IMG/VR virus record: IMGVR_UViG_3300045988_043987
Length of the DNA: 44,072 nucleotides
Strand: one strand, 5' to 3'
From: a virus
Taxonomy: Duplodnaviria; Heunggongvirae; Uroviricota; Caudoviricetes
The translations under genes and the position numbers were made by a program. Shown piece after piece: positions 1,805 through 44,072 of the stretch (the stretch's first letter is position 1; the number at the start of each line of letters is the position of its first letter). The notes beneath the pieces were generated by a model, which saw only the letters and a list, made by a program, of their open reading frames with translations, was not told where the DNA came from and did not search any database.

Positions 1805-1827
1805 AGCCCTCTACGGAGGGCTTTTCT
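1805..1827 (+). terminator. intrinsic terminator
   Basis: hairpin AGCCCTC-TACG-GAGGGCT followed by TTTT. Confidence 0.6.
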
Positions 1828-5187: not shown

Positions 5188-5210
5188 AAAGGCCCCGTGA
5201 GGGGCCTTAA
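5188..5210. terminator. bidirectional hairpin terminator (AAAGGCCCC-GTGA-GGGGCCTT)
   Basis: perfect GC-rich hairpin between convergent genes. Confidence 0.55.
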
Positions 5211-5212
5211 AT

Positions 5213-5398
5213 TTAACAAGCTGATGTTGTCCAGTAATCACCATAATCATTTACGTAAAATTTCTTCATACCAGACCACCCGAAGTTCTTACATGTCTTT
5301 TTGAATCGCTTCATTACCTGTGTTCTTGTCAGCATCAAAACACTACCGTTTCCATCTCTTGCGAAATCTCCGCCGGACTTATATGGTTTCTTTTCCAC
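5213..5398 (-). CDS. hypothetical lysine-rich small protein (61 aa), antisense to late genes
   Basis: GTG start preceded by GGGGG; conserved operator/promoter motif directly upstream at 5424-5456. Confidence 0.4.
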   Translation of the reverse strand: MEKKPYKSGGDFARDGNGSVLMLTRTQVMKRFKKTCKNFGWSGMKKFYVNDYGDYWTTSAC

Positions 5399-5423
5399 TT
5401 TTATGCCCCCTGTTTAAATTAAC

Positions 5424-5456
5424 CGAATAGTACCCTATTATATTGGTGTCTGCAAA
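5424..5456. promoter_or_regulatory. conserved dyad operator/promoter motif, copy 1
   Basis: CGAATAGTACCCTATTATATTGGTGTCTGCAAA; core AATAG-N4-CTATT with TATAAT on the minus strand. Confidence 0.6.
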
Positions 5457-5499
5457 TATTATTTTTATGCGTTACACTGGCGATACTACAGGAGGGCTT

Positions 5500-6543
5500 A
5501 TGAGCTTACTTACATCGCTAATCAGCCACCAGATATGGCTGCAACGCACCGCATCCGGCGAAGTGAAAGACCTTGCACCGTTTATTCAGGAGATGCGGGA
5601 TGAAATCAAACGGCAGGTGCTGTTATTCGGTGACGACGGGCGAAGCACAGCGCGCCTGAATAAACTGTTACGCGACCTCGAAGAAGCATTGACCGGACTT
5701 ACGGGTGACTGGCAGACAAAGCTGACAGAAGACCTTAAGGAACTGGCAGCGTATGAGGCTGAGTGGAACGTAAAGACACTTACCGCCAACGTAAATGCGG
5801 AATTTGTTACACCTACCGCCGAACAGGTGTGGGCCGCCGCCGAGTTTCAACCGCTCTCATTAAGCGACAAACCAGTTGATTTCACCAAGCTGATGTCGGG
5901 CTGGGGTGAAACAGAAGTCGCGCGCCTTGTAACCGGCGTTAAAATGGGTTTCGTACAAGGCCAAACCACACGGCAGATTGTTAAAAGCGTAGTCGGCGCT
6001 GGCGGACTGGCAGACATCTCGGAACGAAACGCAGCTACAGTAATACGTACTGCGCTGTCTCATGTGTCCAACGAAGCCCGTAACGAGACGTACCGCCAGA
6101 ACGACGACATCATTGAGAAATACGAAATAGTCGCCACACTCGACAGCCGTACATCAACAATATGCCGTAGCCTGGACAGGCAGGAATACGAAATCAGCAA
6201 AGGTCCGAGACCCCCTTTCCATCCTAACTGCAGAACGACCACTGCGCCCGTAATCAGTTCCGAGTTCGATTTCCTGGATAAAGGTGCAAAACGCGCGGCT
6301 AAGGGTGCGAACGGCGGTACTCAGGTAAGTGCGGACACCACTTACTACGAGTTCCTCAAACAACAACCGGCGTGGTTTCAGGACCAGGCCCTCGGCCCTG
6401 TTCGCGGTAAGATTTTCCGTAACAGCGGTATATCGCCGGAAGAGTTTCGCGTAATATCTGTAGATGGTTTTGGGAATCCGCTCACGCTTAAGCAGATGGC
6501 GGAACTCGATAAACGTGTCGCTGATTATCTGAAAGGGGAATAA
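5500..6543 (+). CDS. head morphogenesis protein (Mu F / SPP1 gp7-like minor head protein)
   Basis: characteristic C-terminal motif ...STICRSLD...PPFHPNCRTT; ATG at 5500 with AGGAGG. Confidence 0.85.
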   Translation: MSLLTSLISHQIWLQRTASGEVKDLAPFIQEMRDEIKRQVLLFGDDGRSTARLNKLLRDLEEALTGLTGDWQTKLTEDLKELAAYEAEWNVKTLTANVNAEFVTPTAEQVWAAAEFQPLSLSDKPVDFTKLMSGWGETEVARLVTGVKMGFVQGQTTRQIVKSVVGAGGLADISERNAATVIRTALSHVSNEARNETYRQNDDIIEKYEIVATLDSRTSTICRSLDRQEYEISKGPRPPFHPNCRTTTAPVISSEFDFLDKGAKRAAKGANGGTQVSADTTYYEFLKQQPAWFQDQALGPVRGKIFRNSGISPEEFRVISVDGFGNPLTLKQMAELDKRVADYLKGE

Positions 6544-7004
6544 TGATGGGCTTTTTCAAAGTAACTGATGTACCGTCGCGTCGCGTAGTCCAGTACGCCC
6601 GCGTGTCTGGCTCCGGCGAGAACGTAGTATTTATTGAGGATGAAAGTGTACTAGGTACACCAGTAGACGATATGCCGTTTGCGGATAAGACAGGCATCGC
6701 ACTTCCTGCGGCAGGTATGCTTTATGAGATTCCGTATCTGGCTGATGCGGGTGATGTGTATTTCTCCGAGCAACCGAAAGATGCGGAACTGGTAGACGGC
6801 AGCGCAACCCTCACTGTCGAAGTTAAAGCAGGTGAAGCGCCGTATACACTGACCTGGTACAAAGACGGTAAGGAAGTGGTAAACGCCCCGGAAGAGGCCT
6901 TGTCTCTGACGGTCAATGCAGTTGGTGAATACTTCGTTAAGGTTACTGATGCCGATGGTGTAGATGCGGTAAGTAAAGCGGCGAAGGTTACTAAGCCAGA
7001 ATGA
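6543..7004 (+). CDS. Ig-like domain protein (putative capsid decoration)
   Basis: Ig-like beta-sandwich signature TLTVEVKAGEAPYTLTWYKDGKEV. Confidence 0.6.
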   Translation: MMGFFKVTDVPSRRVVQYARVSGSGENVVFIEDESVLGTPVDDMPFADKTGIALPAAGMLYEIPYLADAGDVYFSEQPKDAELVDGSATLTVEVKAGEAPYTLTWYKDGKEVVNAPEEALSLTVNAVGEYFVKVTDADGVDAVSKAAKVTKPE

Positions 7005-7006
7005 TA

Positions 7007-7038
7007 AAAGGCCCCTTATGGGGCCTTAATTTTATTTA
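7007..7038. terminator. bidirectional intrinsic terminator
   Basis: AAAAGGCCCC-TTAT-GGGGCCTT followed by AATTTTATTT. Confidence 0.7.
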
Positions 7039-7553
7039 AATCGCGCTGGCATTAGCACCATAAATGCAGTGTTTGAAAATGATATTTTGCATCCTCTGAT
7101 TTGGTCCTGGAAATCGAAACGAGCGATTTCATTTTTGTATGCCTTAGAAATCTTGTGCGCGTCCGCCAAGTAGCGCAGGGTGAACCCTATGCTGTCAACC
7201 GCCCCCGGCGTGATGTGCGCCACACGTCTCCAGTCAGGAAACCTTCCGTCTACAACATCTACCGGAAGTGTACATATAAGCGCACGACTATCGTCATAGA
7301 AAGAAACGCTGCTGTTGTCGTGGTCTACTTCCGCGTAGTTAAATTTAGAAGGCTCTCTCCCTTTGATGTCTATGAGAACCGCATTCTCAACGTTTGTCTT
7401 AACGTTGTCGCAGAACAATCTATGACCGTCCGTAGACACTATCAATCCCTCCGGGTCTATGTAAAAAGCATTCAAATAATAGCGCACATCATTTTTAGCT
7501 CTGCATATTTTTGCCCCTACATACGCAGGGAAAGTAATTACTGTAGTAGCCAT
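7032..7553 (-). CDS. truncated beta sliding clamp (DnaN)-like protein
   Basis: segments DVRYYLNA, STDGHRLF, VDGRFPDWRRV, SIGFTLRYLADA and C-terminal MVLMPARFK match recalled enterobacterial DnaN domain II and C-terminus; GAGGAGG ribosome-binding site; own promoter motif. Confidence 0.7.
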   Translation of the reverse strand: MATTVITFPAYVGAKICRAKNDVRYYLNAFYIDPEGLIVSTDGHRLFCDNVKTNVENAVLIDIKGREPSKFNYAEVDHDNSSVSFYDDSRALICTLPVDVVDGRFPDWRRVAHITPGAVDSIGFTLRYLADAHKISKAYKNEIARFDFQDQIRGCKISFSNTAFMVLMPARFK

Positions 7554-7578
7554 TTTAACTCCTCCTCGTTTCGATAAC

Positions 7579-7611
7579 TGAATAGTACCCTATTATGTTG
7601 GGGTGTGCAAA
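7579..7611. promoter_or_regulatory. conserved dyad operator/promoter motif, copy 2
   Basis: TGAATAGTACCCTATTATGTTGGGGTGTGCAAA; minus-strand reading precedes the clamp-like gene's ribosome-binding site. Confidence 0.6.
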
Positions 7612-7661
7612 CTATTTATTAGCCTATTCCAGTTATTCCGCTCAATTGTAAATGTTGGAAT

Positions 7662-7704
7662 AAACTATTCGAATAGTTGACTTTTCACTAAAAATATGCT
7701 AAGC
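7662..7704 (+). promoter_or_regulatory. promoter of ncRNA A with upstream perfect palindrome
   Basis: palindrome AACTATTCGAATAGTT (7662-7677) overlapping -35 TTGACT (7676-7681); 17-bp spacer; -10 TAAGCT (7699-7704). Confidence 0.55.
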
Positions 7705-7710
7705 TCCACC

Positions 7711-7910
7711 TGAGCTTGTGAAGTATGAACAAGCGACCGCGGCGCGGGCAGGTAACGGAGCGGGACGTAAGTCCTGAGTGTAGTTACGCTGACGCGTTCG
7801 GAAGGGCCATACTCTATTGCTTGTGTAAAAAGTAACTGGTTTACTGAGATTACGCCGTTTCTATGTTTAAATGATAAGGACTAGCGCCCCGCTTTATGGC
7901 GGGGCTTTAC
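7711..7910 (+). ncRNA. candidate structured small RNA, paralog A
   Basis: own promoter; 5' hairpin GCUUGU-N9-ACAAGC; internal hairpin GGAC-GUAA-GUCC; conserved 3' segment UUCGGAAGGGCCAUA; terminator-like hairpin GCCCCGC-N6-GCGGGGC plus U-rich tail; paralog at 38625. Confidence 0.5.
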
Positions 7911-7929
7911 TTATCGAGAAAGGAGAAAC

Positions 7930-8316
7930 ATGAATCTTAAAGCAACTGTCGTAGCGGGAGCATGTTTCATCATCCTGGCTTACGCACACGGCATCCACCA
8001 GTATCGCAGCGGCTGGCACGAAGGCCGGGCGAATCTCGTTTCGCAGCAACAGCAGAAAGCACAAGCTGAGTTAGCGAAGAAAACACAACGGCAGCAGCAG
8101 GATGAATCAAAGGCCGCAGCCGCTGACAACGAAGGCAAGACGAAATCAGAGGTGATTACCCGTGAAGTCGTTAAGTACATTAAAACGCCTGGCCGCAGCG
8201 TGTGCACTTTTGACCCTGAGCGCGTGCAGCTCAAGTCCCGCGCCGTCGCAAACGCAAATTCCATCCCCGGATATGACGATGATGCAGCCTCCGTGCAAAC
8301 TGGCGCCGCCAAGTAG
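7930..8316 (+). CDS. i-spanin (Rz-like)
   Basis: N-terminal TM helix, Q/K-rich coiled-coil region, o-spanin gene overlapping in another frame. Confidence 0.75.
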   Translation: MNLKATVVAGACFIILAYAHGIHQYRSGWHEGRANLVSQQQQKAQAELAKKTQRQQQDESKAAAADNEGKTKSEVITREVVKYIKTPGRSVCTFDPERVQLKSRAVANANSIPGYDDDAASVQTGAAK

Positions 8317-8425
8317 CGACGCTGACGAGGATTTGGCTATCGACGTTCAGAACGCCGAATGTGTACGGCAACTGAGACTGAAAGTGTTCATGTTGCAGGA
8401 TTACGTGAGGAATATTCTGGAATAG
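8162..8425 (+). CDS. o-spanin (Rz1-like outer-membrane lipoprotein)
   Basis: signal peptide with lipobox LSAC, proline-rich mature part; GTG start with GAGGTGA; begins inside Rz and extends past its stop. Confidence 0.7.
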   Translation: MKSLSTLKRLAAACALLTLSACSSSPAPSQTQIPSPDMTMMQPPCKLAPPSSDADEDLAIDVQNAECVRQLRLKVFMLQDYVRNILE

Positions 8426-8507
8426 TTGCCTTGCATGTTGGAATAATTTATTCTTGACATGTAAATCCGGGTGGCCCGGGTTCCAACGTCCAGGGGACAT
8501 ACTGACT

Positions 8508-9209
8508 ATGAATCGTTTTTTACGTTATCCGTTCCAGGAAGAAGCTGGGGCAGAAGATAAAGCTGGTGGCGGTGACGCGCCGAAAATGTTCACCGCTGAA
8601 GAAGTTCAGGCGCTGATTGAGAAAGAAGTCGCCGGGCTTAAGGCCAATCAGGAAGCGTTGCTGGCGGAGAAGAAAGAAGCCGCTCGCAAAGCAAAAGAGG
8701 CCGAAGAAGAACGGCAGCGCGCACACCAGGAGGCGTTAAAAGCCGCTGGTAAGATGGACGAGTTCGAAAAAACGATTCGTAGCCAGTATGACCCGGTGCT
8801 AGCCGAGAAAGATGGCCGCATCTCCAGAATGGCAGAGCGCATCCTCGGCAGCGAACGTAAAGCGGTGTTAGGCTCTTTCGCAGGTGACTTCATCACCCCG
8901 GAAGCAGTGGACATCCTTGCACCGTTCGTTAAGACTGAGTTCGAAGGTGATGATGTGGTTACTAAGTTTGTCGGTGCAGATGGCAACGTAATCACGACTG
9001 ACCCGGAACAGTTCCGCAAATATCTGCGCGAACACAAAGCGTTTTCGCATTTGATTAAAGCAAATGCAGCTTCCGGCGGCGGGGCTTCCGGTGGCAAAGG
9101 CGGCGGGGCCGCACCAGCGTTTAAAGACATGAGTGAAGCGGAGCGTTTAGCTCTGTATAAATCGAACCCTGCCGAATTTGAACGGCAACTTAAAGCCCTG
9201 AGGAAATAA
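8508..9209 (+). CDS. scaffolding protein
   Basis: charged alpha-helical/coiled-coil sequence with Gly-rich C-terminal region, immediately upstream of major capsid gene. Confidence 0.6.
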   Translation: MNRFLRYPFQEEAGAEDKAGGGDAPKMFTAEEVQALIEKEVAGLKANQEALLAEKKEAARKAKEAEEERQRAHQEALKAAGKMDEFEKTIRSQYDPVLAEKDGRISRMAERILGSERKAVLGSFAGDFITPEAVDILAPFVKTEFEGDDVVTKFVGADGNVITTDPEQFRKYLREHKAFSHLIKANAASGGGASGGKGGGAAPAFKDMSEAERLALYKSNPAEFERQLKALRK

Positions 9210-9211
9210 TA

Positions 9212-10261
9212 ATGGCAATTACCACTATCGGCGATATCGTAACTAGCAACATCCCGGTCTTGGCGTCTTATATGACCGAGGACCCGGTAGAGAAAACCGC
9301 GTTCTTCCAGTCCGGTATTCTGACCCCGACTCCGTACGCCGCAGAGATTGCTCGTGGCCCTTCCAACGTCGCCAACATTCCTTTCTGGAAAGCGATTGAT
9401 GCCTCTATCGAGCCTAACTATTCGAACGACGTGTATCAGGACATCGCTACCCCGCGTAACGTGCAGACCGGTGAGATGATGGCCCGCGTTGCGTACCTGA
9501 ACGAAGGTTTCGGCCAGGCGGACCTGACTGTCGAACTGACCAGTCAGAATCCGCTGCAATCCGTGGCTTCTCGTCTGGATAACTTCTGGCAGCGCCAGGC
9601 ACAACGCCGTCTGATTGCTACCGCGCTGGGTCTGTACAACGACAACGTAGCCGCTACTGATGCTTACCACGAGAAGGATGACATGGTTATCGACGTGTCC
9701 GCTACTCTGGGCTTCGACGCGGGTGCATTCATCGACGCTACCCAGACTATGGGCGACGCTCTGATGGGCAACGGTGGTGAAGTGCTGGGCGCCATTGCTA
9801 TGCACAGCTTCGTTTATGCGCAGGCGCGTAAGCAGCAGCTTATTGACTTCATCAAAGACGCCGACAACGACACCCTGTTTGCCACCTACCAGGGCTACCG
9901 CGTGATTGTTGACGACAGCATGACCGTGGTCGGCACTGGTCCAAGCCGTAAGTTCATCTCCATCATCTTCGGCAACGGCGCTATCGGTTATGGCGAAGGC
10001 AACCCGTCCAACCCGCTGGAATATGAGCGCGAAGCGTCTCGCGGTAACGGCGGTGGCATTGAAACCCTGTGGACCCGTAAGACCTGGCTGTTGCACCCGC
10101 TGGGTTACAGCTTCACCAGCGCAGTAATCACTGGCAACGGCACCGAGACTACCCCGCGCTCTGCTTCATGGCAGGACCTGGCGAACGCCTCCAACTGGAA
10201 CCGTGTTGTTGACCGTAAGCACGTACCGATTGCCTTCCTGGTAACTGGTGTCGGTGCTTAA
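9212..10261 (+). CDS. major capsid protein
   Basis: 349-aa ORF after scaffold gene, GAGGA ribosome-binding site, followed by attenuating terminator. Confidence 0.7.
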   Translation: MAITTIGDIVTSNIPVLASYMTEDPVEKTAFFQSGILTPTPYAAEIARGPSNVANIPFWKAIDASIEPNYSNDVYQDIATPRNVQTGEMMARVAYLNEGFGQADLTVELTSQNPLQSVASRLDNFWQRQAQRRLIATALGLYNDNVAATDAYHEKDDMVIDVSATLGFDAGAFIDATQTMGDALMGNGGEVLGAIAMHSFVYAQARKQQLIDFIKDADNDTLFATYQGYRVIVDDSMTVVGTGPSRKFISIIFGNGAIGYGEGNPSNPLEYEREASRGNGGGIETLWTRKTWLLHPLGYSFTSAVITGNGTETTPRSASWQDLANASNWNRVVDRKHVPIAFLVTGVGA

Positions 10262-10277
10262 GGTTAAGCTATAATCG

Positions 10278-10304
10278 AGAGGGACTTCGGTCCCTCTTTT
10301 CATT
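10278..10304 (+). terminator. intrinsic terminator with UUCG tetraloop
   Basis: AGAGGGAC-UUCG-GUCCCUCU followed by TTTT. Confidence 0.7.
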
Positions 10305-17096: not shown

Positions 17097-17122
17097 TTTA
17101 AACCCCTTCATTGTTGGTGTAA

Positions 17123-17156
17123 GTGAATAGTACCCTATTATATTGGGGCGCGCAAG
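17123..17156. promoter_or_regulatory. conserved dyad operator/promoter motif, copy 3
   Basis: GTGAATAGTACCCTATTATATTGGGGCGCGCAAG. Confidence 0.6.
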
Positions 17157-17263
17157 TAGTGTGCTAGAATAAGTTTGCGCCTAGTGTCGCACACGAAAAG
17201 CGGGTGGTTCCCGTCTGGCGCATTTATCGTTAACCTGTAACCTCTTAACCAAAGGATTAAAGA

Positions 17264-29461: not shown

Positions 29462-29492
29462 TTGGTGTAGGACTAACTATAGTAGTTCGCTA
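29462..29492 (-). promoter_or_regulatory. sigma70-like promoter (TTGACG-17-TATAGT) with dyad operator in spacer
   Basis: minus-strand TTGACG, 17-bp spacer containing AATAGCGAACTACTAT, -10 TATAGT. Confidence 0.5.
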
Positions 29493-29757
29493 TTAGGTCG
29501 TCAACCTGTTTGAACGAACCAACGACAAAAACATTTGCACCACGTTTGCGCATCCGCTCGTGCTCTCGTAACTGGTGCGGGTCAGGCTTCGTGCTTTCGT
29601 CTTTCTTAACCTCGACGAACCAGATGATGCCGCCGGGGAGAATTACCAGCAGGTCAGGAGCGCCGGAGCGCCCCTCGTAGGAAAGTTTACGAACGAGGCC
29701 ACCAATGGCCTCGAATCGCTCTTTTGCGTATTTCTGTATTTTTCCTTCCGGGGTCAC
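29473..29757 (-). CDS. VRR-NUC domain nuclease
   Basis: PD-(D/E)XK-like pattern GAPDLLVILPGGIIWFVEVKK ... HQLREHERMRKRGANVFVV. Confidence 0.65.
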   Translation of the reverse strand: MTPEGKIQKYAKERFEAIGGLVRKLSYEGRSGAPDLLVILPGGIIWFVEVKKDESTKPDPHQLREHERMRKRGANVFVVGSFKQVDDLIANYYS

Positions 29758-33074: not shown

Positions 33075-33106
33075 TGGTTAGAAATATAATAGCTAACTAT
33101 TCAGGT
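33075..33106 (-). promoter_or_regulatory. sigma70-like promoter (TTGACA-17-TATATT) with dyad operator in spacer
   Basis: minus-strand GTGTTGACA, 17-bp spacer containing TGAATAGTTAGCTATT, -10 TATATT; upstream of SSB gene. Confidence 0.6.
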
Positions 33107-33115
33107 GTCAACACT

Positions 33116-35167: not shown

Positions 35168-35200
35168 GTATGCACTAACTATAATAGCTAACTATTCATT
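35168..35200 (+). promoter_or_regulatory. dyad operator/promoter motif, copy upstream of helix-turn-helix gene (site 1)
   Basis: ATGCAC-TAAC-TATAAT-AGCTAACTATTCA. Confidence 0.55.
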
Positions 35201-35221
35201 ATGTCAATGGGCTTTTCTAAA

Positions 35222-35250
35222 ATAATTAATATGGTACTATTCACATATCA
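35222..35250 (+). promoter_or_regulatory. dyad operator/promoter motif, site 2, about 20 nt before ribosome-binding site of helix-turn-helix gene
   Basis: TAATATGGTACTATTCACAT, one mismatch from canonical copies. Confidence 0.55.
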
Positions 35251-38481: not shown

Positions 38482-38589
38482 TTTTATATCTCCTGTTTGT
38501 TTAGTGAAGCCAAGTATAGGATAGCGTGAATGTAAAAGCAACCAAAACACCACACAAAGTTACTAAGATACAAAAGATGCTACTGGTAT

Positions 38590-38618
38590 TGACTTTTACT
38601 AAGAAATATGCTAAGCTC
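38590..38618 (+). promoter_or_regulatory. promoter of ncRNA B (TTGACT - 17 bp - TAAGCT)
   Basis: same hexamers and spacing as ncRNA A promoter. Confidence 0.55.
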
Positions 38619-38624
38619 GTCCTG

Positions 38625-38836
38625 AGCTTGTGAAGTATGAACAAGCGACCGCGGTGCGCGGCAGGCGAAACGAGCACGTCTCGACGTGTGGAGTGAGTCT
38701 CGCTGGCGCATTCGGAAGGGCCATAGTCTATTGTTATTCCCGCCTAAGTATCTAAGTTACTGATTTGACGTAGGTTAGAACCGCAAGCTCACTCACTCAC
38801 TCTTGGTGCCTTCGGCACCCCGTTCGTTTCGTTTCG
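38625..38836 (+). ncRNA. candidate structured small RNA, paralog B
   Basis: shares 5' 37 nt and 3' UUCGGAAGGGCCAUA segment with paralog A; internal hairpin CACGU-CUCG-ACGUG; terminator-like GGUGCC-UUCG-GCACC plus U-rich tail. Confidence 0.5.
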
Positions 38837-38885
38837 CTCGCTACCCTATTACACGAAAGAATCACAACGGCAACGTAACTATTCT

Positions 38886-38919
38886 CTTGCACACCCCAAT
38901 ATAATAGGATACTATTCAC
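38886..38919 (+). promoter_or_regulatory. conserved dyad operator/promoter motif, copy 4 (TTGCAC-N7-TATAAT-AGGATACTATTCAC)
   Basis: perfect TATAAT at 38900-38905; about 30 nt upstream of ribosome-binding site of 38950 gene. Confidence 0.6.
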
Positions 38920-38949
38920 TTATCGAAACGAGACAGAGGAGTGAGGGTT

Positions 38950-39141
38950 ATGTTTAAAAAGGGTCAGTTGGTTAAATGCGCCGACGGTAAACACGGTGTG
39001 ATTGAATTAAAATCCGCTTTATTTCCGGGAGAGTACGTAGTTACTGTGCAAAAGGTGAGAGGAGTAAATTCGGTGGTATACGTAGCGGAAGAGAATTTAA
39101 AGCTAATCGGCAACAATTTTAAATTCAAAGGGGCGAAGTGA
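38950..39141 (+). CDS. hypothetical protein (63 aa)
   Basis: GAGGAG ribosome-binding site; first gene of rightward early cluster. Confidence 0.6.
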   Translation: MFKKGQLVKCADGKHGVIELKSALFPGEYVVTVQKVRGVNSVVYVAEENLKLIGNNFKFKGAK

Positions 39142-39347
39142 TGGACGAATTATTCGAAGAACTGAAACATCATAAACTGGAGAAAGTGCATTTCCAGGTA
39201 AACAGATACGAGGTTATTTTATTCGACGGCCCAACTATTTCTTCCGGGGTATGGAAGGACCTGCTAAAAGTTTTACGTGCGCTACGAACGGCATCGAATC
39301 ATGATGCCAGTGCCGACGACTCTGAGGGAGTTGCCGTTAATGAATAA
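39138..39347 (+). CDS. hypothetical protein (69 aa)
   Basis: ATGA-coupled ORF. Confidence 0.55.
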   Translation: MMDELFEELKHHKLEKVHFQVNRYEVILFDGPTISSGVWKDLLKVLRALRTASNHDASADDSEGVAVNE

Positions 39348-39606
39348 CGCTGAACTGGAAAAAGTCTCCGACACTCTTCATAAGGTACGGGTCATGCGTC
39401 GGGGTGCTGGGCTGGAGCAGTTTTATAACATGTGGCGCACCGCGACGCGCGACCATGAGTTTCTGCGAACAGGTTATTATTTCACTAAAGGCATTATCCC
39501 GATTCGCGCACGCGGGGATTACGGATGGGTTCGCGAGACACCTAATCTTATGTGGTGCTGGTACTGCGGTGAGTTCTGGGTGCACGTTAAAGAGAAGATG
39601 GGGTGA
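39340..39606 (+). CDS. hypothetical protein (88 aa)
   Basis: ATG at 39340 overlapping upstream stop. Confidence 0.5.
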   Translation: MNNAELEKVSDTLHKVRVMRRGAGLEQFYNMWRTATRDHEFLRTGYYFTKGIIPIRARGDYGWVRETPNLMWCWYCGEFWVHVKEKMG

Positions 39607-39609
39607 GTT

Positions 39610-39864
39610 ATGAGAGAAGCATTCGAACGGTGGGCCGTCGTCGATGGTCTGCCGGTTAACAAGGGTTCGAAGAAAGAGTACCTGAACGTTAAGACGCGTC
39701 TCGCGTGGCGGGCGTGGAAAGCTGGTGTGCAGTACAAATCTCGTGCTGACGAAGTGCTGCTCTCGCGTTCATACAAGAATCAGACACATGAAGCGTTAAA
39801 ATGCGATTCTCCGAAGTCTGATGAATCGATCTTAGATATGCTATCTACTTACTCAGAAAGGTAA
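39610..39864 (+). CDS. hypothetical protein (84 aa)
   Basis: ORF with GGGTGAG upstream. Confidence 0.5.
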   Translation: MREAFERWAVVDGLPVNKGSKKEYLNVKTRLAWRAWKAGVQYKSRADEVLLSRSYKNQTHEALKCDSPKSDESILDMLSTYSER

Positions 39865-39907
39865 GTGGAAAGCTGGTGTGTTGTTTATCGCGAATCAGAG
39901 GTGAGAT

Positions 39908-40111
39908 ATGGGTAAGTGGATTAAGTGTAGTGAGCGGATGCCAGACCATGGCCAGCCAGTTTTGGTTGTCAGTAGTATGGGTGGTGTGGTCCAGAACAAT
40001 GTGTACGAGTGGGATGGGGTAACTTGGTGTGATTTCCGGGCGGACTACGGGGAACACGTGCAGGAAGTGTTTTCTCACTGGATGCCATTACCTGAGCCAC
40101 CAGAAGTGTGA
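39908..40111 (+). CDS. DUF551-like protein
   Basis: W-x-KCSERMP ... HWMPLPEPP pattern typical of DUF551. Confidence 0.55.
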   Translation: MGKWIKCSERMPDHGQPVLVVSSMGGVVQNNVYEWDGVTWCDFRADYGEHVQEVFSHWMPLPEPPEV

Positions 40112-40143
40112 TGTTCAATAGTTTGGGATTTTACTGAGTGACT

Positions 40144-40176
40144 TACGCTGCTACACAGCAGCGTATCATTTTTCTC
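40144..40176 (+). terminator. intrinsic terminator
   Basis: TACGCTGC-N6-GCAGCGTA followed by T-rich tract. Confidence 0.6.
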
Positions 40177-40235
40177 ATTTTTGTTCTATTTCACCAAACG
40201 CAACAATCGAAGCGACTATTGAAGGAGATGCAACA

Positions 40236-40406
40236 ATGAAACTTAATGACATCGTAACCTGGACCGGTAGAAACGGAGAAAAGCGATTCGGGCTTATTGT
40301 TGCATCAAACGGCAACAAGTACCGTGTTATGCGATGGCGTCAGTGGGCGCGACGCCCGAGGCACTACTGGATTAGTAGCGAACGATTATCTTTAAAACAC
40401 CAATAA
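40236..40406 (+). CDS. hypothetical basic small protein (56 aa)
   Basis: strong AAGGAG ribosome-binding site; below track cutoff. Confidence 0.4.
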   Translation: MKLNDIVTWTGRNGEKRFGLIVASNGNKYRVMRWRQWARRPRHYWISSERLSLKHQ

Positions 40407-40412
40407 AATTTA

Positions 40413-40447
40413 CTTGCACGCTAAGATAGAATAGGCTACTATTCACT
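40413..40447 (+). promoter_or_regulatory. conserved dyad operator/promoter motif, copy 5 (TTGCAC-N7-TAGAAT-AGGCTACTATTCAC)
   Basis: same architecture and leader (CACAAACGAGAGGAG) as copy 4. Confidence 0.55.
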
Positions 40448-40473
40448 TACACAAACGAGAGGAGAGACAGAAT

Positions 40474-40614
40474 ATGATTCCCGCAGCAACTTGGATGGAA
40501 GGGTATAGGTCCTGGACTTTAGGCGAACTGGTTGATGCTTACGAGATACTAGGCAGCACTTCGGTGTGTAACGGCGACACGAAAGTGATAACAATGGGGT
40601 TTGATGATGAGTAA
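40474..40614 (+). CDS. hypothetical small protein (46 aa)
   Basis: GAGAGGAG ribosome-binding site; below track cutoff. Confidence 0.4.
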   Translation: MIPAATWMEGYRSWTLGELVDAYEILGSTSVCNGDTKVITMGFDDE

Positions 40615-41275
40615 CAAAAACGAAGTATTCGAGTACCTGATTGACCAGCTACGGCAGCAGCTACCTGTCGTAGATGTAATGGGTGAGATTGAACGGTGGA
40701 GTATCGACCGTAGTATTGCTGGCCGCGGTAACTATACCGACGAGGAAAACGTCATAATCGATGCTTACATCGGCCTGGAGCACAACACATACAAGCAACA
40801 GTGCGAAGACCTGGCACAAGAGGTACAGTCACTCAAGAATCAGTTACGTGATGCGTCTGCACAGATTAAGGAGTTGCAGGAAGACAACATTAGGAAATCC
40901 GAGCACATATCACATATGACCGGGCAATCGTCCGCATATCGTAATGACGCGTTGCGCTTTCAAGCGCAAGTTGATGACCTGGTAAAACGACTGGCTACCG
41001 CTACCGGTGACGTGGAGGCGTACAAACTTATCCGCAAAGGCGGCTACATTTCTGGTGGTCAGCGATACGTAGTAGGTGAACACGGACCTGAGCAATCTGG
41101 TTGCCGCAAAGAAGATACACAAGAATGCAACCATACCTGGAGATTCGTTAATGGTAAGGCTCCCGCCGTTTGTATTAATTGCGGCGTGACTAAATCCAGC
41201 GAGTGTGAACACGAATGGCAATTTTACGGAGTAGGGTTTCCGTGTATGTGCATTAAATGCGGGCTGAAGAAATGA
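40604..41275 (+). CDS. hypothetical protein with coiled-coil and C-terminal Cys-rich zinc-ribbon-like region
   Basis: four CxxC-type pairs near C-terminus. Confidence 0.55.
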   Translation: MMSNKNEVFEYLIDQLRQQLPVVDVMGEIERWSIDRSIAGRGNYTDEENVIIDAYIGLEHNTYKQQCEDLAQEVQSLKNQLRDASAQIKELQEDNIRKSEHISHMTGQSSAYRNDALRFQAQVDDLVKRLATATGDVEAYKLIRKGGYISGGQRYVVGEHGPEQSGCRKEDTQECNHTWRFVNGKAPAVCINCGVTKSSECEHEWQFYGVGFPCMCIKCGLKK

Positions 41276-41475
41276 CCAGCGTCTTATTCATCTGGGTACT
41301 GTCCGCAGGCCAGATGCAACTGGCGGCATCAGAAACGTTCTATTCGATGGAGGCGTGCCAGTCAGCGGCACGCGCCGCAGAGAACGCGCACTTTCTGTTT
41401 CAGGGCGACAAGCCCATCGATTCAGAGGTACGCGCTATCTGCTCACCTAAGCGACTTGGTAAACAGGAGAAGTGA
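41272..41475 (+). CDS. hypothetical small protein with N-terminal signal-peptide-like segment
   Basis: ATGA-coupled; hydrophobic N-terminus MTSVLFIWVLSAG. Confidence 0.45.
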   Translation: MTSVLFIWVLSAGQMQLAASETFYSMEACQSAARAAENAHFLFQGDKPIDSEVRAICSPKRLGKQEK

Positions 41476-41684
41476 TTATGGTGCAGAGATATTTATTACA
41501 AGGCGGTTTAATTGGACCGCACGATGCAGGTGATTGGGTTGGCTATGAAGATTACGCAAAACTTGAGGCCGCCGTTATCGCATTACTTGCGGACATAAAC
41601 CGACGCTACCCTGGAGAAGGGTTTAAGTGTCCGTTAATACTTAAACTCGCGGAGATTGTGGAACATGTGGAAGGGGTGGAGTGA
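41472..41684 (+). CDS. hypothetical protein (paralog 1 of tandem pair)
   Basis: shares MVQRY...YEDYAKLEA pattern with next gene. Confidence 0.5.
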   Translation: MIMVQRYLLQGGLIGPHDAGDWVGYEDYAKLEAAVIALLADINRRYPGEGFKCPLILKLAEIVEHVEGVE

Positions 41685-41878
41685 TGGTACAGAGGTACGA
41701 GGCAAACGCGTGGGGTCTGCCGGAGCCTGAGATGGCTGAGTACGCGTACGGCGATTACGTAGAATATGACGCTTATCTGAAACTCGAAGCAAAGTTACGT
41801 GAATTCGCTGAACAGGTAATGTACGCACCTTGTTCGAAAGTTACAGAAGAAATGGCCCGCGAGATTCTCGGAATATGA
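41681..41878 (+). CDS. hypothetical protein (paralog 2 of tandem pair)
   Basis: MMVQRY...YDAYLKLEA. Confidence 0.5.
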   Translation: MMVQRYEANAWGLPEPEMAEYAYGDYVEYDAYLKLEAKLREFAEQVMYAPCSKVTEEMAREILGI

Positions 41879-42015
41879 GCCTCGCAACTGACATCCTGAA
41901 ACGAAGCGGCCTCGCTCCGCTGTCTCCGAGAGCGAAGACCCGGATACACAAGCGCCGCCGTAACGCGCTGTTCCCGGAGATACAAGAACGCCGTAAAGCT
42001 ATCCGCGCCTGTTGA
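41875..42015 (+). CDS. hypothetical arginine-rich small protein (46 aa)
   Basis: ATGA-coupled ATG in frame with track ORF 41830-42015. Confidence 0.4.
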   Translation: MSLATDILKRSGLAPLSPRAKTRIHKRRRNALFPEIQERRKAIRAC

Positions 42016-42033
42016 TTCCAGAACGGGAAGGCC

Positions 42034-42168
42034 GTGAATCTTGGTGAGTTTAAAACACAGGAACGCGCAGCTATCGCTAATCGACTATTTAACTACTGGA
42101 AATCGCTGGGGTACGAGGATATTCCGACGAAACCTCAGAGACGACAATACATCTGGAGACACAAATGA
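42034..42168 (+). CDS. hypothetical small protein (44 aa, GTG start)
   Basis: gap-filling ORF whose stop overlaps next ATG. Confidence 0.25.
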   Translation: MNLGEFKTQERAAIANRLFNYWKSLGYEDIPTKPQRRQYIWRHK

Positions 42169-42605
42169 CGACTATCGCGTTCGACGGAAAGACAATGGCA
42201 TGTGACACGCGTGTTGTGTGCGGGAGTAACTGTTACAACACAGACACAAAGATATACGAGAATGATTTTGCTGTTATCGGGGTGGCTGGCGATGCCGGAG
42301 TCGGAACTATGCTTATCGATTGTCCGTATATCCTCCAGGCCAGACACTATGACTTCGATTTCGAAGCCCTGGTGTTCGTGAAAGATACAGAAAAAGTGTA
42401 TAAAGTCGCGTTTTATAAATCGTGGGATTGTGCACTAAGTTCGGTTATCCCTGTTGCCGATAGCTTTGCCGCCGTTGGTTCCGGTTCTCCTTATGCACTG
42501 GCGGCCATGGAATGTGGATATTCAGCACATGGAGGTGTGGCCGTTGCCTCGAAGTTCGACACTAACACGGGCGGCAAGATTATTACCAAACAACTATTAG
42601 GATAA
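42165..42605 (+). CDS. HslV/proteasome-beta-like Ntn-hydrolase peptidase (putative)
   Basis: N-terminal MTTIAF (Thr after Met) and GSGSPYALAA motif, as in HslV TTIV... and GSGGPYAQAA. Confidence 0.55.
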   Translation: MTTIAFDGKTMACDTRVVCGSNCYNTDTKIYENDFAVIGVAGDAGVGTMLIDCPYILQARHYDFDFEALVFVKDTEKVYKVAFYKSWDCALSSVIPVADSFAAVGSGSPYALAAMECGYSAHGGVAVASKFDTNTGGKIITKQLLG

Positions 42606-42664
42606 ATCCTACCCGTGGTATCCTCCAGTTACTGCATACTTAATACGCACCTGGAGGATTCATC

Positions 42665-42973
42665 TTGGATAAATTTACCGAAACAGTGACAGGCTGGCTT
42701 CTCGCTGCCGCACTCGCCGGAGGGGTCATCGGACTACGACAACATAAGTCCGTTATTTCTGGCCCTATCGACGGCTTCTGCTTTATCGCAACCGGCTTCA
42801 CTTGCGCCGTATTTGGTGCGCCTCTTGCCGCCCAATGGTTTGGCATTACCGGGGAGCGTGAAATCGCTGGCCTCGGATTTATCATCGCTGTCCTCTGGAT
42901 GCCCATCTATTCCCGCCTTTCTGGCATCGTCGCCGGAGAATACATCGCACGTCGAGGAGGCTCGGATGAATGA
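42665..42973 (+). CDS. holin (putative, 3 TM helices)
   Basis: three hydrophobic helices, charged C-terminus; TTG start with GGAGGA; upstream of endolysin. Confidence 0.55.
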   Translation: MDKFTETVTGWLLAAALAGGVIGLRQHKSVISGPIDGFCFIATGFTCAVFGAPLAAQWFGITGEREIAGLGFIIAVLWMPIYSRLSGIVAGEYIARRGGSDE

Positions 42974-43238
42974 GCTATTCTGGTTCGGCGGTATGCTGGC
43001 AATCGGTGGCGCATCGCTGTTTAATGTGTATCATCCCAGCGTTGACGACGGGTTATTTGGTCGGGTGCTCTATATCCTGACCGCTATTGTCTGCGCCGCC
43101 GGGTGTATCCACCTGTTACAGGGCAGCATGTCACCTACGTTGCCCGAGACGTTAATCACATTAGTCGCGCTGCGTCAGATTCGTCAGGCGTGGCTGTCGT
43201 ACGGAGGACATAAGCGTGTCTCGAAATATTTCAGATAA
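42966..43238 (+). CDS. second lysis-cassette membrane protein (2 TM helices; holin/antiholin-like)
   Basis: ATG at 42966 with GAGGAGG; overlaps holin stop and endolysin start. Confidence 0.45.
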   Translation: MNELFWFGGMLAIGGASLFNVYHPSVDDGLFGRVLYILTAIVCAAGCIHLLQGSMSPTLPETLITLVALRQIRQAWLSYGGHKRVSKYFR

Positions 43239-43719
43239 TGGATTGCAGTTCAAAAAAGCGTGGGAAAAGTTTCGCGGAACTGCGTACAAAGCAACAAAGA
43301 ACGAAAAATACTGGACTATAGGCTGGGGCCATACCGGGCCTGATGTGTACGAAGGGCAGAAGATTACCGAAGGCCAGGGACTTCTGTTACTGAACCGTGA
43401 TATGCAGTGGGCGGTGAAAGCAGTCGATGACGTCGCACATCCCTCCCTGACCCAAGCCCAGTTTGATGCCGTCGTTGACCTGGTGTTCAACGCAGGGACT
43501 GGCGTGATTGCGGCTACGACAGGGACGGGTAAGGCACTACAGCGGGGAGACATCCCTACCCTACGGCACAAGATGAGTCAGTTCATTAACCAGCGCAACC
43601 CTAAGACCGGTAAACTTGAACCTGTTCTGGGCCTGCGCCGTCGCGTAGCGGGTCGTCTGGCGCTGTTCGACGGTAAACCGTGGCGGGAGGCAGAGGCTAT
43701 CGGGAGGGCTGTTAAATGA
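43216..43719 (+). CDS. endolysin, T4-lysozyme-like (GH24)
   Basis: AYKATKNEKYWTIGWGH lysozyme signature with upstream catalytic Glu; GTG start with GGAGGA. Confidence 0.8.
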   Translation: MSRNISDNGLQFKKAWEKFRGTAYKATKNEKYWTIGWGHTGPDVYEGQKITEGQGLLLLNRDMQWAVKAVDDVAHPSLTQAQFDAVVDLVFNAGTGVIAATTGTGKALQRGDIPTLRHKMSQFINQRNPKTGKLEPVLGLRRRVAGRLALFDGKPWREAEAIGRAVK

Positions 43720-43933: not shown

Positions 43934-43962
43934 CCGGCCCTGACCTAGCCGGGATTTTTTTT
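43934..43962 (+). terminator. intrinsic terminator
   Basis: CCCGGC-N9-GCCGGG followed by T8. Confidence 0.7.
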
Positions 43963-44072
43963 ATCTATTTTCTATAATGACTAGTTGACTATTATCTACG
44001 ACCCTACTATATTTACTCCATCGACAACGAGAACGGAGTAGAGAGAAATGATGACTAAGATTAAGCATACCG
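43954..44072. repeat. terminal direct repeat, right copy (identical to 1-119)
   Basis: exact 119-bp repetition of the window start. Confidence 0.9.

Follow-up and report, generated by a model that had tools for sequence, protein, structure and literature searches.

Where the spanin genes of a phage lie apart from its holin and endolysin genes, the question arises whether lysis is served by two transcription units, and whether these also belong to two temporal classes. Such a case is presented by the Rz and Rz1 genes on the plus strand of a 44,072-nucleotide (nt) stretch of Caudoviricetes DNA (IMG/VR record IMGVR_UViG_3300045988_043987), the whole of which is called the window below. An earlier note, drawn from the sequence alone, had placed the pair in a late region, far from a holin-endolysin cassette at the end of a rightward early cluster, and had proposed that the lysis functions are divided in the first respect and possibly in the second. 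The analysis described here leads to the following reading, to which a probability of about 0.85 is given: the locus is an ordinary two-component spanin pair of the overlapped ‘Jersey’ family, sitting in its ancestral position within the head-gene block of a Kagunavirus.

The spanin pair

That the window holds Rz/Rz1-like spanins, with Rz1 starting at a GTG inside Rz and running past its stop, is borne out by the coordinates of the open reading frames (ORFs), the protein signals and the PHROG matches, which agree with each other. The two genes (Table 1) share 155 nt, Rz1 continues for 109 nt beyond the Rz stop, and each start is preceded by its own Shine-Dalgarno sequence, AAGGAG for Rz and, 7 nt upstream of the GTG, GAGGTG for Rz1. 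Rz is a membrane-anchored protein with a single N-terminal transmembrane domain, in which hydrophobicity peaks at residues 5-19 and the interval 1-23 exceeds the threshold; beyond it the chain is polar and charged (16 K+R, 13 D+E, 11 Q) and carries a single periplasmic cysteine, residue 92. Rz1 is a lipoprotein. Its signal peptide, MKSLSTLKRLAAACALLTLSA, ends directly before the C of the lipobox LSAC (Cys22), and the residue at +2 is Ser and not Asp, as sorting to the outer membrane requires. The mature part is proline-rich and holds Cys45 and Cys67, which are conserved across related loci, and periplasmic cysteines for intermolecular disulfides are therefore present in both spanins.

Against the PHROG profiles, Rz matched phrog_2536 (Rz-like spanin) over its full length (4.5e-56) and Rz1 matched Rz-like spanin families (4.4e-30 and 8.6e-21), and the only Pfam match for the pair was a sub-threshold one to DUF2514. 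In a genome-wide scan Rz1 was the sole credible lipoprotein ORF, with none adjoining the endolysin. The o-spanin correctly starts from the GTG at 8162. Many public records call this protein from an internal Met (residue 41 here), which gives products of 47-48 amino acids (aa) with neither signal peptide nor lipobox, as in Bas70_0009 (locus L001, 5839-5982), K1B4 gene 031 and phrog_5672, and in some records the o-spanin is left entirely without annotation.

The pair resembles Rz/Rz1 of lambda in that a type II inner-membrane protein and an outer-membrane lipoprotein are read in +1-related frames of the same DNA. Both pairs presumably serve the last step of lysis, a likeness drawn from general knowledge and from weak PHROG/Pfam DUF2514 similarity. 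No close sequence similarity is detectable between the Rz of the window and that of lambda, and lambda Rz1 is embedded in Rz, whereas Rz1 of the window is overlapped.

Selection on both reading frames

An overlapping +1 frame could be a chance ORF or a mis-call, so that only Rz would be real, or neither gene might be a spanin. Truncated calls from Met41 (47 aa) or absent o-spanin calls in many GenBank records would fit such a reading, as would the ratio of non-synonymous to synonymous polymorphism (pN/pS) of about 0.9, near neutral, found in the Rz1 frame inside the overlap, where the signal peptide and linker are encoded. The comparative data refute it for Rz1. From IMG/VR, 47 related loci were taken, and 46 sequences, the window and 45 loci (44 unique), were compared. 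In all 46 the +1 frame is open to the same stop. The lipobox was located by scan in 36, and in the remaining 10 the +1 translation contains LLNGC or LLSGC. In variants where ...TLSAC has become ...MLASC, the lipobox moves by one residue (LSAC with Cys22, LASC with Cys23), so that its position is restored.

Read in the Rz1 frame, the segment that belongs to Rz1 alone has a pN/pS of 0.11; read in that of Rz it gives 2.5. For Rz the ratio is 0.33 outside the overlap and 0.44 within it, and off-frame controls ranged from 1.0 to 2.5. Judged by these ratios, selection keeps both reading frames. Together with the strong profile matches of Rz1 to o-spanin families, this leaves the chance-ORF reading with hardly any probability, and the overlapping spanin pair is confirmed far beyond chance. 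Among the relatives, the IMG/VR locus L041 (3001-3589) carries a ‘separated’ version, with an Rz of 118 aa and an Rz1 that starts from ATG and overlaps Rz by only 14 nt. The Rz1 of this locus has a different signal peptide and an ITGC lipobox, in agreement with the FSL SP-031 case of Kongari and others.

A known family in a conserved layout

The ‘Jersey’ spanin family was described by Kongari and others in a 2018 census as having an overlapped architecture, with Jersey, SETP3, SE2, K1G, K1H, K1ind1-3, HK578, EP23 and JL1 among its members, which also take in the Jersey-like Salmonella phages (Kongari et al., 2018; PMC6139136). In Jersey the spanin overlap is 155 bp, the o-spanin of the family has constant Cys45 and Cys67, and the periplasmic domain of the i-spanin is described as two helices with a beta-containing linker (PMC6139136). 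The pair in the window has the same proteins and architecture, the same 155-bp overlap, the same two cysteines and the proline-rich o-spanin linker; there is no substantive difference, and it is a further member of the family. Its proteins are 92-98% identical to those of many sequenced Kagunavirus isolates, and a tblastn search with Rz gave 64-98% identity to Jersey-like and K1-type phages, with an Rz homologue in 665 records. At the DNA level, about 1 kb around the spanin locus shares 96-97% identity with Raoultella phage RP180, with Bas70-76 of the BASEL collection and with many other Kagunavirus isolates (336 matching phage records). The source genome, 97% identical to RP180 and Bas70, is a Kagunavirus (Guernseyvirinae).

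The window represents a complete, circularly closed genome, about 43,953 bp in length, that was opened at an arbitrary position. Its termini share 119 identical nt (1-119 equal 43954-44072), an overlap that is most likely an assembly mark of circular closure rather than a biological terminal repeat. Because the ends overlap in this way, the linear map gives an artificial distance of 34 kb: measured across the genome junction, the endolysin stop and the Rz start lie about 8.2 kb apart on one strand. Between them are small genes, the terminase subunits, and the portal, head-morphogenesis and Hoc-like decoration genes, together with one minus-strand gene. The spanins do occupy a locus separate from holin and endolysin, as the earlier note had it, and the word ‘far’ overstated the distance.

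Nor is the split new, as that note had implied. The order holin-holin-endolysin, terminase-portal-head morphogenesis and Rz/Rz1-scaffold-capsid, all on one strand, is found in Kagunavirus, Jerseyvirus and Dhillonvirus. Bas70 (Kagunavirus) has the same split layout as the window; in Jerseyvirus AG11 the gap between endolysin and Rz is 7.6 kb, and in Dhillonvirus BMA1 it is 6.3 kb, with an 8-nt overlap between Rz and the end of the head-morphogenesis gene. On this comparison of gene orders the split layout of the lysis genes is old and stable. It is also on record: in the paper on phage Golestan, a Kagunavirus, ORF66/67 are given as holins, ORF68 as endolysin and ORF7/8 as spanins, and the GenBank records of RP180, Bas70-76, phiWAO78-1, AG11 and many others annotate spanins at the same position. 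Since the 2018 census, the Golestan paper and the GenBank annotations carry the gene pair and its separation, the layout is already known, and it is ordinary for this phage group.

Other phages show how variable the arrangement can be. In lambda the spanins are contiguous with holin and endolysin, whereas in the window the packaging and early head genes intervene and the spanins follow at a distance of 8.2 kb, with five terminator-like hairpins in between, and a contiguous lambda-type cassette is thus absent from the window. Klebsiella phage 2b LV-2017 carries a 38%-identical Rz inside a classical Q-S-lysozyme-spanin cassette (Q-S-R-Rz), and this Rz protein family is therefore used for lysis in both arrangements. 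The T4 spanin genes (pseT.3/pseT.2) are, like the pair in the window, not close to the holin and endolysin genes (PMC6139136). In T4 the spanin genes are also separated from each other and the lysis genes are all scattered, whereas here the spanins overlap and holin, holin and endolysin are tightly packed.

The structured RNA ahead of Rz

Directly upstream of Rz lies a structured non-coding RNA of about 190 nt, called ncRNA A, or in other terms the 5' leader of the spanin transcript. A promoter-like site, the RNA and a terminal hairpin stand at a fixed distance 5' of Rz in every Guernseyvirinae locus that bears the RNA motif. Indels of 11, 13 and 1-2 nt distinguish the Kagunavirus RNA from that of Jerseyvirus, and a 36-aa ORF annotated on it in some records has its ATG deleted in Jerseyvirus. 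These indels and the loss of the ATG rule out a conserved ORF, and so the RNA is non-coding. Relatives annotate it as a small hypothetical coding sequence (Bas70_0007, AG11_07).

Its structure is conserved where its sequence is not. In an internal hairpin the pairing is kept while the sequence is fully changed between lineages (GGGAC/GUCCU, CACG/CGUG, GGGCG/CGCCC, GGUGC/GCACU), with double changes in four of six pairs, and compensatory changes across loci are also seen in the terminator stem and a long-range helix. The minimum-free-energy fold of a single sequence, when set against 35 sequences, received clear support for the internal hairpin and the terminator stem only, and its other helices did not. 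No credible Rfam match was obtained, either for the whole window at gathering thresholds or for 7550-7950 at E up to 5, and the RNA was not found described in the literature searched.

A second copy, ncRNA B, occupies 38589-38820 and is 89% identical over the first 70 nt. Relatives that have it are in the minority (181 records, with 224 places), and paralogous RNA modules were for this reason set aside as a general link between the two lysis loci.

Transcription of the two lysis loci

The claim of two transcription units stands as far as it can be read from the DNA: between the endolysin and the spanins lie five terminator-like hairpins and, before Rz, a plus-strand promoter-like site at 7677-7705. 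Separate transcription of the spanins and of holin and endolysin is thus well supported in silico. The site at 7677-7705 is the only promoter-like one placed to feed Rz/Rz1; it is duplicated at 38589, and it is conserved as TTGACT/TAGACT ... TGnTA(A/C)GCT in Kagunavirus and Jerseyvirus loci. An equivalent of the bidirectional terminator at 7008-7027 is found after the Hoc-like gene in Jerseyvirus.

Between the terminal hairpin of the RNA (7886-7905) and the Rz ATG there are 24 nt, Shine-Dalgarno sequence included. Because nothing more separates hairpin and ATG, every transcript entering Rz must traverse the hairpin, which is likely a leaky intrinsic terminator; its U-tract is weaker in Jerseyvirus. 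Downstream, the terminator scan found no U-tract terminator between Rz1 and the hairpin at 10277-10298. The most economical unit would begin with the promoter, the structured leader and its leaky terminator, pass on to Rz/Rz1 and probably extend over the genes for scaffold and capsid.

The intergenic block at 8435-8480, between Rz1 and the scaffold gene, has neither a U-tract nor a recognisable -10. It contains one copy of a direct repeat, ATGTTGGAATAA..TATTC..TTGAC, which is present at 7652-7682 and 8435-8459, on either side of the RNA-Rz-Rz1 module; the second copy is kept into Jerseyvirus and is followed by the conserved hairpin CCGGGTGGCCCGG. The repeat may stem from duplication of a promoter region or reflect how the module arose. 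Two candidate signals in this region were rejected. The motif GGAATAANNTATTC was considered as a genome-wide mark of late promoters, and it is found in exact form at just two positions, 7657 and 8440, on either side of RNA-Rz-Rz1. A sigma-70 promoter for the scaffold gene at 8454 (TTGACA) has no usable -10, and its -35 is not conserved in Jerseyvirus.

Several points weigh against the preferred reading of the locus. If the block at 8435-8480 were an additional promoter or a site of processing, as it might be, Rz/Rz1 would form a separate unit. Taken together, the consensus scans for promoters and terminators gave no enrichment over shuffles, and because of this the case for the transcription units rests on individual strong, conserved sites. 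Use of the promoter, read-through at 7886 and co-transcription with scaffold and capsid are predictions.

Timing of expression

It is possible, though on the doubtful side, that the two lysis loci also differ in temporal class, holin and endolysin being expressed with the early or middle rightward genes and the spanins with the late head genes. In favour of this, a family of promoter-like sites has the palindrome AATAGT-N3-CTATT, which gave 9 matches against 0.1 expected by chance and resembles a shared operator at which a regulator of phage or host would act. Two forms are seen once the promoters are oriented, TTGACA-17-TATA(T/G)T and, with its leader conserved, TTGCAC-17-TACTAT. Replication genes and minus-strand inserts are preceded by such promoters, and so is the rightward cluster of small genes that ends in holin and endolysin: this plus-strand cluster (38941-43719) is headed by TTGCAC-17-TACTAT promoters at 38887 and 40414 that share the palindrome with the replication genes, and the Rz promoter lacks the element. 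The promoter scan showed no recognisable promoter directly ahead of the holin, and the 8-nt overlap of Rz with the head-morphogenesis gene in Dhillonvirus points to late structural expression of the spanins.

Against such a division stands the insulation of the cassette, as the ribosome-binding site of the holin is buried in a strong hairpin and the holin genes of AG11 and BMA1 have a terminator-like hairpin immediately ahead of them. In the time-course of K1B4, the one found for Kagunavirus, lysozyme, the Mu-F-like head protein and capsid fall together in one ‘middle’ class. The classes of that study are coarse, and because sampling runs to 120 min and DNA polymerase is called ‘late’, the time-course is weak evidence either way; it gives no per-gene time data for the spanin ORFs (genes 030 and 031).

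The opposite arrangement would be one long late transcript, made by lambda-like antitermination, on which all lysis, packaging and head genes are co-expressed across the genome junction. All the genes concerned are co-directional, and holin and endolysin lie just upstream of the terminase, as in lambda. The order of promoter, RNA of about 190 nt and terminator directly before lysis genes resembles the PR'-6S RNA-tR' segment of lambda, which, as is generally known, has a promoter, a short RNA and a terminator hairpin directly 5' of the lysis and late genes. This part of a lambda-type module is present in the window (promoter at 7677-7705, RNA at about 7712-7905, hairpin at 7886-7905, Rz ATG at 7930), and the second module copy at 38589-38820 lies upstream of the cluster that ends in holin and endolysin. 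For StxS, a small RNA of a Shiga phage, a terminated leader is described that can itself be a stable RNA (PMC7547250). From lambda 6S and StxS the RNA of the window differs in its conserved internal structure with covariation and in the weak U-tract of its terminator, above all in Jerseyvirus.

The long transcript is nevertheless improbable. No Q- or N-like antiterminator was found in the annotations of Bas70 and AG11 or among 20 small plus-strand proteins of the window compared with PHROGs, most of which fall in families of unassigned function and the rest of which had no match. The second copy of the RNA is confined to a minority of relatives, and promoter-like sites 3' of several terminators (43985, 1827 and 7677) fit re-initiation rather than read-through.

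The holin-endolysin cassette

The holin, second membrane protein and endolysin that the earlier note had placed at 42665-43719 are there, with coordinates and PHROG/Pfam identities in agreement, and they form a tight overlapping cassette (Table 1). The endolysin has no signal, membrane or signal-arrest-release segment and is soluble. At the head of the cassette, the 3' arm of a stem-loop (42620-42654) holds the Shine-Dalgarno sequence of the holin, 10 nt ahead of the TTG start. In Jerseyvirus AG11 and Dhillonvirus BMA1, hairpins of other sequence with U-tracts end 0-6 nt before the holin starts. Since hairpins stand at the holin start in all three, the cassette would be shielded from the genes upstream, and the arrangement suggests translational or transcriptional gating of the holin. 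A gene for an HslV-family peptidase-like protein (42165-42605; phrog_1040, 1.5e-34; just under the threshold for Pfam Proteasome) lies directly 5' of the holin, as in AG11.

Neighbouring features

Inserted between the RNA and the Hoc-like gene is a minus-strand gene at 7553-7032 (173 aa) that carries a promoter of its own (7613 to 7575), and its product matches phrog_3007 (labelled RusA-like resolvase; 3.5e-37) and has a weak likeness to a sliding-clamp domain. Bas70 has a different gene, of 67 aa, in this position and AG11 has none, and because of this difference 7032-7553 is taken as a variable insertion slot. In the segment 5188-5458 no convincing gene lies between the hairpin at 5188-5215 and a promoter of the TTGCAC-17-TACTAT type on the minus strand; AG11 has a minus-strand amidase gene at the equivalent position. 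The segment may be an emptied insertion slot or encode a short antisense RNA.

Table 1. Positions of the genes and predicted signals of the two lysis loci and the region between them (window coordinates; dG, free energy).
Feature	Position	Strand	Remarks
Terminator-like hairpin with U-tract	1805-1822	+	just 5' of small terminase gene; kept in Bas70 and AG11
Hairpin after portal gene	5188-5215	+	poor U-tract
Head-morphogenesis gene	5500-6543	+	between endolysin and Rz
Hoc-like decoration gene	6543-7004	+	between endolysin and Rz
Bidirectional terminator	7008-7027	both	closes head-morphogenesis/Hoc-like unit (+) and 7553-7032 gene (-)
Sigma-70-like promoter, TTGACT-17-TAAGCT, TGn extended -10	7677-7705	+	predicted; heads structured RNA
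Structured RNA (ncRNA A) or spanin leader	7712-7905	+	about 190 nt; start placed from the promoter
Terminal hairpin of the RNA	7886-7905	+	8 bp, dG -17.9, then UUUACUUAU
Rz-type i-spanin gene	7930-8316	+	ATG to stop, 128 aa
Rz1-type o-spanin gene	8162-8425	+	GTG to stop, 87 aa; +1 frame relative to Rz
Conserved block between Rz1 and scaffold gene	8435-8480	+	repeat ATGTTGGAATAA..TATTC..TTGAC and hairpin CCGGGTGGCCCGG (8468-8480)
Head scaffolding gene	8508-9209	+	3' of spanins, no terminator in between
Major head protein gene	9212-10261	+	3' of scaffold gene
First strong plus-strand terminator 3' of spanins	10277-10298	+	beyond scaffold and capsid genes
Stem-loop ATCCUCCAG...CUGGAGGAU	42620-42654	+	dG -20.6, z -3.3
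Holin	42665-42973	+	102 aa, phrog_2359, TTG start
Second holin-family membrane protein	42966-43238	+	90 aa, phrog_2508
Endolysin	43216-43719	+	167 aa, Pfam Phage_lysozyme 2.2e-24
Strong intrinsic terminator	43934-43965	+	8-bp stem, 9-nt loop, U8, dG -13.8; ends holin/endolysin unit; kept in Bas70 and AG11
AATAGT-N3-CTATT sites	5420-5458, 7575-7613, 17120-17158, 29476-29507, 33083-33114, 35178-35249, 38881-38933, 40408-40460

Working model and significance

In the reading preferred here, RNA polymerase would start at the promoter-like site at 7677-7705 and make the structured leader. Part of the polymerases would stop at the hairpin at 7886-7905 and the remainder would read into Rz/Rz1, with transcription probably running on into the scaffold and capsid genes, up to 10277-10298. 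Rz1 would be translated from its own GTG and Shine-Dalgarno sequence. By analogy with lambda, inner-membrane Rz and lipid-anchored outer-membrane Rz1 would then form a complex spanning the periplasm, inert while the cell wall is intact, which after the action of holin and endolysin would fuse or disrupt the membranes. The holin sets the timing of lysis, and the spanins need no co-regulation with it. Because the holin alone sets this timing, the spanin genes would be free to sit in another unit, and the split would be tolerated and stable.

The split layout in itself matters little, given the T4 precedent, the public annotations and the 2018 census. The practical value of the locus lies in annotation, as many relatives carry a truncated 47-aa o-spanin or no o-spanin call. 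Residual interest attaches to the conserved RNA leader before Rz, the hairpin over the ribosome-binding site of the holin and the repeat that flanks RNA-Rz-Rz1. From these elements it may be proposed, tentatively and with the odds against it, that in Guernseyvirinae RNA hairpins, and not membership of an operon, gate the lysis genes. If this were true, the leader might be an attenuator, or an antitermination element in cis, factor-independent or factor-dependent, that sets the amount of spanin, scaffold and capsid mRNA, and once terminated it could also act in trans like StxS. The hairpin over the ribosome-binding site could likewise set the dosage of holin, its counterparts in Jerseyvirus and Dhillonvirus being terminator-like. 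Kagunavirus phages now form part of the BASEL collection and are genetically tractable. For the scheduling of late genes in small virulent siphophages that use the host polymerase alone, this regulatory anatomy would be of modest interest.

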